From: Dehalococcoidia bacterium
GTDB lineage: Bacteria > Chloroflexota > Dehalococcoidia > Plut-88900
NCBI GenBank assembly: GCA_965249275.1
Contig: CBDFLQ010000005.1
Coordinates: 64,001-128,000, forward strand
Direction of reading: 5' to 3'
Length of the DNA stretch: 64,000 nucleotides
Shown: positions 13,700 through 14,600 of the stretch, in pieces
Layout of the letters: every line of letters begins with the position of its first letter
Numbering within the stretch: position 1 is the stretch's first letter
Notes under the pieces: generated by a model
Seen by the model: the letters and a program-made list of their open reading frames with translations, nothing else
The model's database searches: none
What the model was told of the DNA's origin: nothing
Position numbers and translations under genes: made by a program

Positions 13700-14032
13700 A
13701 GAACAATACGGAGGATTTTGTCCAGAAGATGATCTTGACTTGGCTCCTCCCCCTGAGTTACCTCGTGGGGGGATGCTAGGCTCAATCCAGCAAGCTCTTG
13801 TTTGCAAGGCAACTGCTCTCCCAAACTAAGCTATTACCCCCTACCACACGCGGCAGCAACTAATGAAAGCAAAATGAGAGCAAGTGGTATTACCTTAGGC
13901 ACGCTCTAGGCGCGTCATAAACGTTCTCTCTAGCTTCATCATGCCCCCCACCCCCCAAATCCTCACCTTTCCTCCCCTCCTCCTTCCCGTAGGGATGGGT
14001 CGCGACCCGCCTCGGCGAGTGACATCAACCCC

Positions 14033-14061
14033 TTGACCTGTATGAACATTAGTGCTATTAT
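14033..14061 (+). promoter_or_regulatory. Sigma70 promoter with LexA-like box
   Basis: TTGACC-17 nt-TATTAT; GAAC-atta-GTGC at 14044-14055. Confidence 0.65.
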
Positions 14062-14067
14062 CCCCAC

Positions 14068-14600
14068 CGTTCGAACACCACCCTAACTACCTCAAGGAGG
14101 AACCAAAAACTAGGGAAGCCCACCCGACCCACCCGAGGACTCAACGCCCCAGCCCATCCCAACGTCCCCCACGCAGGGCCCGCGGCTCAAGCGACCGACG
14201 CCATCTCCTCATCCCACGGGTCCCGTGCCCCTTCCCTACCCCCAGGCGATGGAAGATGTCCTGGACTCAACCCGGCACAGGCCCTCCTAATGGAAGGGCC
14301 GAAGAGACGGGCCATAACAGCCGAAAGATGCAGTGCCTTTCTTGCAGGGCGCCCTACGTGGCCGGCATTGACCTTGCCGGCGAATCGAATGAGCCCCCCA
14401 ACGTGGGGCTACAAGGGCCATCGAGCCCTTTCTGGTGGACGGGGAGCCCCCACACTGGGAGACTTTCTCCCCCCTGACCGCCTTCACAAACACAAGTGGG
14501 ATGAGCAGGCCGGCCTCCCGCCCCCTGCGCCCGAGTCCCGGACCTTCCATCGCTGACCCAAAACCCTAACAAGACAATCAACCCCCCCACAACTGAATCC
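14068..14600 (+). ncRNA. Candidate large structured ncRNA, copy A
   Basis: Paralogous to 46163-46830; covarying helices; closing helix 14245-14268/14533-14554; no conserved ORF. Confidence 0.65.

Follow-up and report, generated by a model that had tools for sequence, protein, structure and literature searches.

Introduction

Correia/NEMIS elements of Neisseria and similar miniature inverted-repeat transposable elements (MITEs) are dispersed, non-autonomous and intergenic, have inverted ends and short target duplications, and can supply promoters and be co-transcribed as folded RNA. Here we describe an element that resembles them and carries an RNA gene. The stretch studied is 64,000 nt of the genome of a Dehalococcoidia bacterium (contig CBDFLQ010000005.1, positions 64,001 to 128,000 of the forward strand; "the window" in what follows), in which an earlier note, made from the letters alone, had picked out two intergenic regions, copies A and B, as paralogues of a candidate new family of large structured RNA. 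Like the Neisseria elements, ours is dispersed, non-coding, non-autonomous and intergenic, with inverted ends and short target duplications; it differs in being five to eight times longer (about 730-890 bp with both ends), in being best conserved not at its ends but in an RNA gene inside it, whose helices covary and whose loops are invariant, and in its target, which lies just upstream of a -35 box and is duplicated over 5 bp; among the insertion sequences (IS) whose ends were compared with it, none proved to be the parent. A study in Coxiella has reportedly dealt with a related theme, MITEs and small RNAs.

Several other groups invite comparison. The BOX elements of Streptococcus pneumoniae, ~100-250 bp in length, are modular, with constant ends and a variable middle, and have no promoter or Shine-Dalgarno (SD)-like box of their own. 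Our element shares the modular build with a variable middle, the stable predicted RNA structure and the proximity to genes, but it has no sequence or model similarity to BOX and does have a promoter and an SD-like box. It likewise recalls the HEARO/IscB omega RNA, the TnpB RNA and the IS110 bridge RNA, large, ornate RNAs found in multiple copies on mobile DNA, which came to notice as orphan structures before their function was understood. Unlike these transposon guide RNAs, however, it has no Rfam match, no nuclease or recombinase open reading frame (ORF) within it or as a regular neighbour and no guide-like match to its own flanks; and while IS200/605 and IS110 elements to our knowledge lack inverted-repeat ends and target duplications, ours has both. 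The OLE, GOLLD, ROOL and raiA RNAs are similar in size (0.5-0.8 kb) and in their multi-branch form; they occur in one or few copies and are phylogenetically broad, whereas our element matches none of their models, reaches 23-71 copies per genome and is found in one genus. Finally, the Stab-SD leaders of Bacillus (cryIIIA, aprE), which are short and not mobile repeats, carry an SD-like sequence near the 5' end without a start codon; the start-less AAGGAGG that precedes our putative structured leader resembles them as a functional analogy only.

We find that the element is, or was, mobile DNA: a previously undescribed, MITE-like repeat carrying an RNA gene, which we class as a kind of MITE whose RNA cargo is uncommonly large and under structural constraint. 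A full-text literature search, with supplementary files outside its reach, turned up no account of it. Our best explanation, to which we give a probability of roughly 0.55, is that copies A and B are genus-specific, non-autonomous MITE-like elements that carry, as their conserved cargo, a gene for a structured RNA under its own promoter, which probably serves mainly as a leader in cis.

Results

A dispersed repeat with a constant frame and a variable core

Rather than being two paralogues, as first proposed, copies A and B are 2 of 54 copies of one repeat in the window's own genome (G000; an assembly of 2.9 Mb in 7 contigs), where the 5' module is found 61 times at E<=1e-3 with blastn and nhmmer, 54 times in full length at >90 bits. 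The six features that the earlier note had listed, from the upstream box and promoter to the closing helix and tail, are all present where it had placed them, and the layout of copy B at 46113-46829 is the same as that of copy A. The neighbours are indeed unrelated: the genes downstream encode GlnRS (copy A) and a Peptidase_S58 protein (copy B) according to their Pfam domains, and the 259-aa ORFs upstream of the two copies have no similarity to each other, on which ground a segmental duplication as the origin of the pair was rejected. The parts of the two copies are as follows; R1 is a covariance model of 165 positions and 30 pairs, made from 21 type-I copies with the helices of the earlier note and the apex hairpins.

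Copy A
14019-14024, + strand: upstream box GTGACA
14033-14038 and 14056-14061, + strand: promoter, -35 TTGACC and -10 TATTAT, 17-nt spacer with TG
14094-14102, + strand: Shine-Dalgarno-like AAGGAGGAA, without a start codon after it
14094-14255, + strand: conserved 5' domain, R1 match of 163.8 bits, E 1.5e-36
14111-14118 with 14231-14238, + strand: rod helix P1, TAGGGAAG pairing with CTTCCCTA
Rod helix P2, + strand: CAC-CC-GACCC pairing with GGGTC-CC-GTG
14135-14139 with 14206-14210, + strand: rod helix P3, GAGGA pairing with TCCTC
Apex, + strand: invariant loop CUCAACGYCYMAGCCCAUCCCAA, variable hairpin P4 and hairpin P5
14245-14553, + strand: core domain, with closing helix GGCGATGGAAG (14245-14255) and CTTCCATCGC (14544-14553)
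14554-14598, + strand: A/C-rich, G-poor tail, ending in ACTGAAT (14592-14598)

Copy B
46092-46867, + strand: full element with terminal inverted repeats
From 46092, + strand: left end TGATCCCGTTCACATAGAGGAGTGACA
46127-46132 and 46151-46156, + strand: promoter, TTGACA and TATATT, 18-nt spacer
46191-46359, + strand: 5' domain, R1 match of 113.7 bits
46349-46359 with 46769-46779, + strand: closing helix
46823-46829, + strand: ACTGAAT at the end of the tail
46841-46867, + strand: right end GTGTCACTAATCTACCGAACGGCTGCA
46868-46901, + strand: target site, 5-mer CGGGC, then host TTGAAC (46873-46878), 17-nt spacer and TACAAT (46896-46901)

The promoter of copy A is the sole sigma-70-like site in 13800-14800, with 10 of 12 matches and TG before the -10 box (0.3 expected), and no intrinsic terminator-like site was found 3' of the copy. 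The closing helix, extended by GTCC/GGAC and GGACTC/GAGTCC, encloses a multi-branch core of 288 nt (type 7). The GlnRS ORF starts at 14628, 30 nt past the tail, with no visible SD. Beyond the shared layout, copy B extends on either side to terminal inverted repeats (46092-46867), which the earlier note had missed and which copy A lacks.

Across the genome, the promoter, AAGGAGG, the rod and apex, the 11-bp closing helix and the tail are constant, and the core is the variable part. The promoter layout GTGNCR..TTGA..N16-19..TANNNT is kept in 50 of the 53 full copies, the exact AAGGAGG in 53/53; the apex loops are invariant in 54/54 copies and across species, and the 3' arm CTTCCATCGC lies 290-540 nt beyond the 5' arm in 54/54, never with more than a single mismatch. 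Like that of the 5' module, this recurrence exceeds chance. What the invariant helix encloses, by contrast, is a fast-changing core of ~190-530 nt that falls into nine blast clusters (13, 12, 10, 6, 5, 3, 2, 2 and 1 copies). Each cluster folds as a multi-branch domain closed by a helix of 15-25 bp that extends the invariant arms, and no motif common to all core types was found, no 7-9-mer being present in more than six of the nine clusters. The whole element measures ~0.55-0.9 kb and makes up about 1.3% of each genome in the genus. Since the core types differ between orthologous loci and one orthologous copy has lost its apex (see below), modules have been exchanged between copies and cores swapped between loci, presumably via recombination. 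An invertible segment, with the 11-bp arms serving as recombination sites, was considered and rejected: the cores include no reverse-complement pair, and minus-strand blast gave two self-hits only.

The element is itself visited by smaller repeats. A mini hairpin of ~22 nt, GGAACRYCCGCCTMTGGMGGA, is inserted in its loops, namely in the apex P5 loop and in the tail before ACTGAA (for example, the apex loops of L037, L039 and L069 and the tails of ~20 copies in G000), and is also present elsewhere in intergenic DNA and upstream of GlnRS in G001. The intergenic DNA is dense with further small repeats, among them the hairpin CCCTCTCCC..GGGAGAGGG followed by CTAGGGTGAGGGTGA, and GAGGGTTCCCCGGTGGGGCTGGGGCGGTGTC; they occur at 45960-46040 of the window and upstream of many copies, often directly 5' of the GTGACA box.

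Distribution, ends and empty sites

The family is restricted to one genus of Dehalococcoidia. In a DNA search, the module was present in 8/8 other species of the genus and in 0/32 other genomes of the class; model R1 gave 23-71 matches per genome in all eight species and none in the three other genera that form the rest of the order (94, 94 and 80% complete). The exact apex pattern occurs at 78 loci or more on chromosomes titled "Dehalococcoidia bacterium"; among the matches listed, the only other is a single stray one (L138, titled "delta proteobacterium"), which has no R1 match. No viral contig carries the apex pattern, and the six metagenome contigs that do are all from one data set.

The imperfect ends span ~27 bp, TGATCCCGTTCA..GTGACA on the left and TGTCAC..CCGAACGAGTACA on the right. 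Inverted ends (TGATCCCGTTCACATAGAGGGGTGACA left, TGTCACTAAYCTACCGAACGAGTACA right) are found in 16 of the 54 copies, copy B among them and copy A not, and the right end only in a further nine; all 25 right-end motifs of the genome adjoin a copy. An exact 5-bp direct repeat flanks 10 of the 16 copies with both ends, two of the 10 being one duplicated locus, and the flanking 5-mers match at four or more of five positions in 13/16. In 10 of the 16, the right flank next begins with TTG, followed at promoter distance by a -10-like hexamer (read by eye). At the Peptidase_S58 locus, we can see the site both with and without its insert: the element is present in G000, G001, G002 and G005, and in two of the five related species, the more distant G004 and G007, the locus is empty and reads as a bare ..CCCC|TTGAAC-N17/18-TACAAT. 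Across the four occupied species, the core varies from ~190 to 420 nt, and the left end is kept in G000 only.

The many dispersed copies and the lack of a transposase inside are traits of a MITE; the size, 727-890 bp with both ends, is not, MITEs being usually under about 300-500 bp. A genus-restricted repeat with ends and duplications in a subset of its copies, with insertion polymorphism and with recombining modules nevertheless behaves as a MITE-like element. The interior is, however, much better conserved than the ends, AAGGAGG being kept in 53/53 and the promoter in 50/53 copies, both ends in 16/54.

Other mobile DNA lies close by. The genome has 22 rve-family hits. An IS481-like IS occupies 51289-52580 of the window, with a 394-aa transposase (rve, rve_3, LZ_Tnp_IS481) and inverted ends of ~45 nt; its transposase type, a 401-aa open frame, has eight hits in the genome, the window copy among them. 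A second IS, with a 438-aa rve transposase, has GTGACACGAACCCC on one side and, on the other, the TTGAC -35 box belonging to the promoter of our element (L173-L177, L179 and L180; in G005, G002 and G001). It is always divergent, its ORF ends 74-83 nt before the apex in 7/7 loci, and a CCCC repeat is present in the two loci where the junctions were read; the element's promoter seems to serve as the target of this IS. At the groES promoter (G000:C6:928796-928830, minus strand), the element's left end and GTGACA box extend up to the -35 and are followed by a CIRCE-like inverted repeat and groES. There are two readings: groES is driven by a solo end of the element, or the end of the element originated in a promoter of this kind.

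Structure and covariation

The predicted RNA structure is strand-specific, with covariation in the rod and the apex hairpin. On the + strand, both copies tested fold better than their dinucleotide shuffles (copy A, z -3.17; copy B, z -3.79), and on the - strand neither does (z -0.15 and +0.58), in line with the structured RNA that the earlier note had drawn; the minimum-energy fold of copy A reproduces the rod. Among the 54 copies of G000, 92.9% of the cells of the R1 alignment are paired, compared with 85.9 +/- 0.5% after shuffling and 42-60% when the partners are slid. Twelve of the 30 pairs have changed on both sides, and the 127 double-change cells clearly exceed the 47.6 +/- 7.9 of the shuffled alignments, 0/500 of which reached as high a number. 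The picture is much the same in 94 distinct copies from other genomes, in which 91.8% of cells are paired (86.1 +/- 0.3% shuffled; 40-52.5% with slid partners), and two-sided changes affect 17/30 pairs and 135 cells (30.2 +/- 4.6 shuffled). All four P4 pairs covary in this cross-genome set, and compensatory changes are seen in P1, P2 and P4 across nine genomes. The compensatory changes claimed from two copies thus hold well beyond them, the rod and the apex hairpin exceeding both the shuffled and the slid controls.

Energies point in the same direction. The strands of the rod pair with their cognate partners at -23.9 kcal/mol and with those of the other type at -19.9 kcal/mol, and for the 25-nt extension of the closing helix, the values are -17.3 (cognate) and -12.5 kcal/mol (cross-family). 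In the family-1 core, as folded by RNAalifold, 42 of the 224 paired columns vary, in contrast to 92 of the 177 unpaired ones, a difference that is supportive only, because RNAalifold itself prefers conserved columns.

Coding potential, known families and transcripts

The element is non-coding. No ATG, GTG or TTG follows AAGGAGG at 3-16 nt in any of the 53 copies, so the missing start codon remarked on in copies A and B is a property of the whole family. In the three largest core families, the frame-breaking indel of the earlier note has its like in 24 of 27 indels, 3/27 being multiples of 3, and the variable sites favour none of the three codon phases, with no third-position excess. Stop-free + frames of at least 200 aa exist in 11 of the 54 copies, and an ATG within GGCGATGG is nearly invariant; those open frames cross the promoter and change phase between copies, Pro, Arg and Ser abound in them, and stop codons are rare by composition because the + strand is poor in T and A.

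Its unlikeness to known RNA families, the other half of the original proposal, is borne out by Rfam 15. At the gathering score, the whole window yields five tRNAs only; copy A has no match at E<=10, copy B chance-level matches only (E>=0.47), and seven other core types, at E<=1, one flanking tRNA only. Of the window's tRNA genes, four are clustered at 38492-38900 (- strand) and one lies at 53454-53526 (+); elsewhere, tRNA genes directly follow two copies of the element (L002 and C6_81012).

Transcription is weakly shown. Metatranscriptome contigs from four runs in three studies match the 5' domain (14105-14268) at 85-97% identity, two records of run X1 fall on the core of copy A (one over 117 nt with 8 differences, the other over 188 nt with 6), and two contigs, 649 and 698 nt long, begin within the 5' domain and run on into other cores. 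The four RNA runs contained only 0.05-0.06 of the sampled words, and the contigs of one of them, labelled a sponge metagenome, are from relatives at 90-97% identity and not from this strain. No RNA-run contig covers 13900-14104 (the promoter and first 35 nt) or 14556-14720 (the tail and GlnRS start), gaps that are uninformative on the ends of the transcript because contigs were used and a repeat family breaks assemblies. The + strand transcript predicted for copy A therefore finds some weak backing over the 5' domain and the core, but its strand and ends are absent from the contigs.

Genomic neighbourhoods

By crude longest-ORF calls, the longest downstream ORF is co-oriented with the element in 40 of the 54 copies (binomial p 0.0005), and the upstream ORF is divergent in 32/51. 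The start codon lies between 10 and >400 nt from the element. Judged by their N termini, and by Pfam domains for GlnRS and Peptidase_S58 only, the downstream genes are diverse and include aminoacyl-tRNA synthetases, UvrA-like proteins, amidohydrolases, oxidoreductases and tRNAs; tRNA synthetases (GlnRS and LeuRS) account for 2/54, and no recurrent partner gene was found beside the copies. The element stands 5' of GlnRS in G000 and in four of the five other species examined, with core types that differ between species; at the GlnRS locus of G004, no 5' domain was found, and in G007, the copy has lost the whole apex and kept the promoter, AAGGAGG, the base of the rod, the closing helix and the tail.

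A guide RNA in the manner of the transposon-encoded ones was also considered and rejected. The mean longest word that the core or interior of a copy shares with its own 200-nt flanks is 8.0-9.0 nt, and with the flanks of other copies 8.0-9.7 (both strands), the exception being weak 12-13-nt matches of 4/53 cores to the same-strand downstream flank. Neither within the copies nor as a regular neighbour was a nuclease or recombinase ORF found.

A different leader, ~140 nt long, follows the host promoter downstream of copy B (46873-47045). It precedes Peptidase_S58 and is conserved in 6/6 species; pairing is possible between a segment at its 5' end, GCAGCCGACCGCGAG, and the first half of an intrinsic terminator (CCCTCGC..GCGAGGGTTTTTG), its consensus fold has 41 pairs, three of them compensatory, and it has no Rfam match. 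We regard it as a candidate for an unknown riboswitch or attenuator.

Discussion

Our analyses demonstrate that what looked like an RNA gene in two copies is part of a mobile, or once mobile, repeat. From the original description, the non-coding nature, the strand-specific structure and the covariation stand, and the idea of a two-copy cellular gene gives way to a dispersed repeat of 23-71 copies per genome. The earlier note had also listed findings that would speak against it (a known Rfam family or MITE, no covariation among homologues, no transcription or a conserved ORF), none of which was seen in the form in which they had been put.

We suspect that the element is transcribed from its own near-consensus sigma-70 promoter towards the neighbouring gene and that it probably acts in cis as a leader. 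Its main action would be that of a portable promoter combined with a long, nuclease-resistant structured leader, in which the start-less AAGGAGG at the 5' end may serve as a ribosome-binding stabiliser, by analogy to the Bacillus Stab-SD leaders, and ribosomes, or Rho, might land on the unstructured A/C-rich, G-poor tail. The reasoning behind the cis role is one of maintenance: around 50 copies keep the promoter, AAGGAGG, the rod and the closing helix while most have lost their ends, from which we infer that each copy matters locally, and a local role at each locus would in turn explain why dozens of copies have these parts intact.

Several observations weigh against this explanation. On the side of mobility, 38 of the 54 copies are missing at least one of the inverted-repeat ends, as copy A is, and the search for a cognate transposase found none: the ends of the IS481-like IS (read at two copies, window 51289-52580 and G000:C7) and of the 438-aa rve IS differ from those of the element, in a comparison that left out the 329-aa rve IS (~12 copies in G000) and the non-rve IS families. 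On the side of the cis action, 14/54 copies have no co-oriented long ORF ahead of them, the calls being crude longest ORFs, and the copies with inverted repeats are followed by the host gene's own promoter, so that the downstream gene may well be independent of the element; the likeness of the copies could also be due to gene conversion and not to locus-by-locus selection. The contigs from the RNA libraries may derive from DNA and show no strand, start or end. The structural evidence has weak points of its own. P3 never varies, and P5 is paired in 81-86% of cells, its covariation amounting to nothing in the 54 copies of G000 and, in the 94 copies of other genomes, to a single pair with one double change; the covariation comes largely from two haplotypes of the rod (35 and 18 copies), the alignments behind it were fitted to the R1 structure, and some seven (~7) chimeric copies break P2. 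In the 5' domain, G.U (60) and A.C (59) cells are equally common, so the pair types alone do not pick the strand. Run on a plain MAFFT alignment of 52 modules, RNAalifold proposed 19 pairs, none of them compensatory, and paired AGGAG with CUCCU, a null result that we attribute to misaligned rod strands.

The alternative that survives best is a noncoding RNA that acts in trans from multiple copies, with the constant rod and apex as a protein platform or sponge or as a subunit of a ribonucleoprotein, the many loci providing dosage and the mobile features being incidental. The apex loops, invariant in 54/54 copies and across species, the strong promoter of its own that 50/53 copies have kept and the covariation would all be expected of such a gene; the host genes beside inverted-repeat copies retain their own promoters, and the G-poor tail would suit Rho-dependent release. 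We nevertheless consider it unlikely. With ~50 redundant copies, any one of them should be under weak selection only, and still almost all are intact; a bias in orientation of 40/54 is not expected of a trans-acting gene, no recurrent gene adjoins the copies, and the orthologous GlnRS copy of G007 has dispensed with the entire apex and kept its remaining modules. The more specific proposal of a new modular class of large RNA, with a constant 165-nt domain and an interchangeable core of 200-500 nt at 20-70 loci per genome, acting in trans as, for example, the RNA subunit of an unrecognised ribonucleoprotein in element mobility, defence or gene regulation, strikes us as slightly more doubtful again; HEARO gave a like picture until IscB was understood.

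A purely DNA-level selfish repeat, whose promoter and hairpin features would be signals for transposition or recombination, or REP-like DNA structures, and whose RNA would be a functionless by-product, has the terminal inverted repeats, target duplications and empty sites in its favour, together with the restriction to one genus. It would also be at ease with the equal frequency of G.U and A.C cells, the chimeric copies with a broken P2 and the apparent use of the element's promoter as a target by another IS. Still, it is the + strand alone that beats its shuffles, in 2/2 copies tested, compensatory changes have accumulated in P1, P2 and P4 across nine genomes, and metatranscriptome contigs cover the element; moreover, an interior conserved beyond the ends is the reverse of what ordinary MITEs show. 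On balance, we find such a repeat improbable.

Less probable again, and in our view very unlikely, is a leader that senses a signal, in the manner of a riboswitch, a T-box or a thermosensor, and controls the genes downstream. The element does lie 5' of co-oriented genes, GlnRS and LeuRS among them, and the SD-like AAGGAG can pair locally or with the CUCCU of the apex. However, neither the T-box model nor that of any other riboswitch matches, the 3' end has no terminator and no element to sequester a start codon, and the genes are functionally diverse and begin at anything from 10 to >400 nt away; in distinction to a T-box leader, only 2/54 are tRNA synthetases. The weakest alternative, a degenerate or unusual family of genes for proline-rich small proteins, translated from AAGGAGG or from the ATG in GGCGATGG, can point to that nearly invariant ATG and to the long stop-free frames of 11/54 copies but is already effectively refuted by the lack of a start codon 3-16 nt past AAGGAGG in 53/53 copies, by open frames that span the promoter and differ in phase between copies, by 24/27 frame-breaking indels and variable sites even over codon positions, and by the T/A-poor + strand that by composition has few stops.

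For annotation, the practical consequence is that the element should be masked or labelled and not called as hypothetical ORFs. If the RNA is functional, it adds to the known repertoire a class of structured RNA of 0.5-0.8 kb that is absent from Rfam, and more than 400 natural variants across nine genomes are already in hand for the analysis of its structure. The promoter-bearing, MITE-like element with its RNA leader would exemplify a mobile element that inserts, in fixed orientation, directly upstream of a host -35 box and brings along both a promoter and a leader. Such an insertion would be a ready-made route to rewire gene expression in uncultured Dehalococcoidia.

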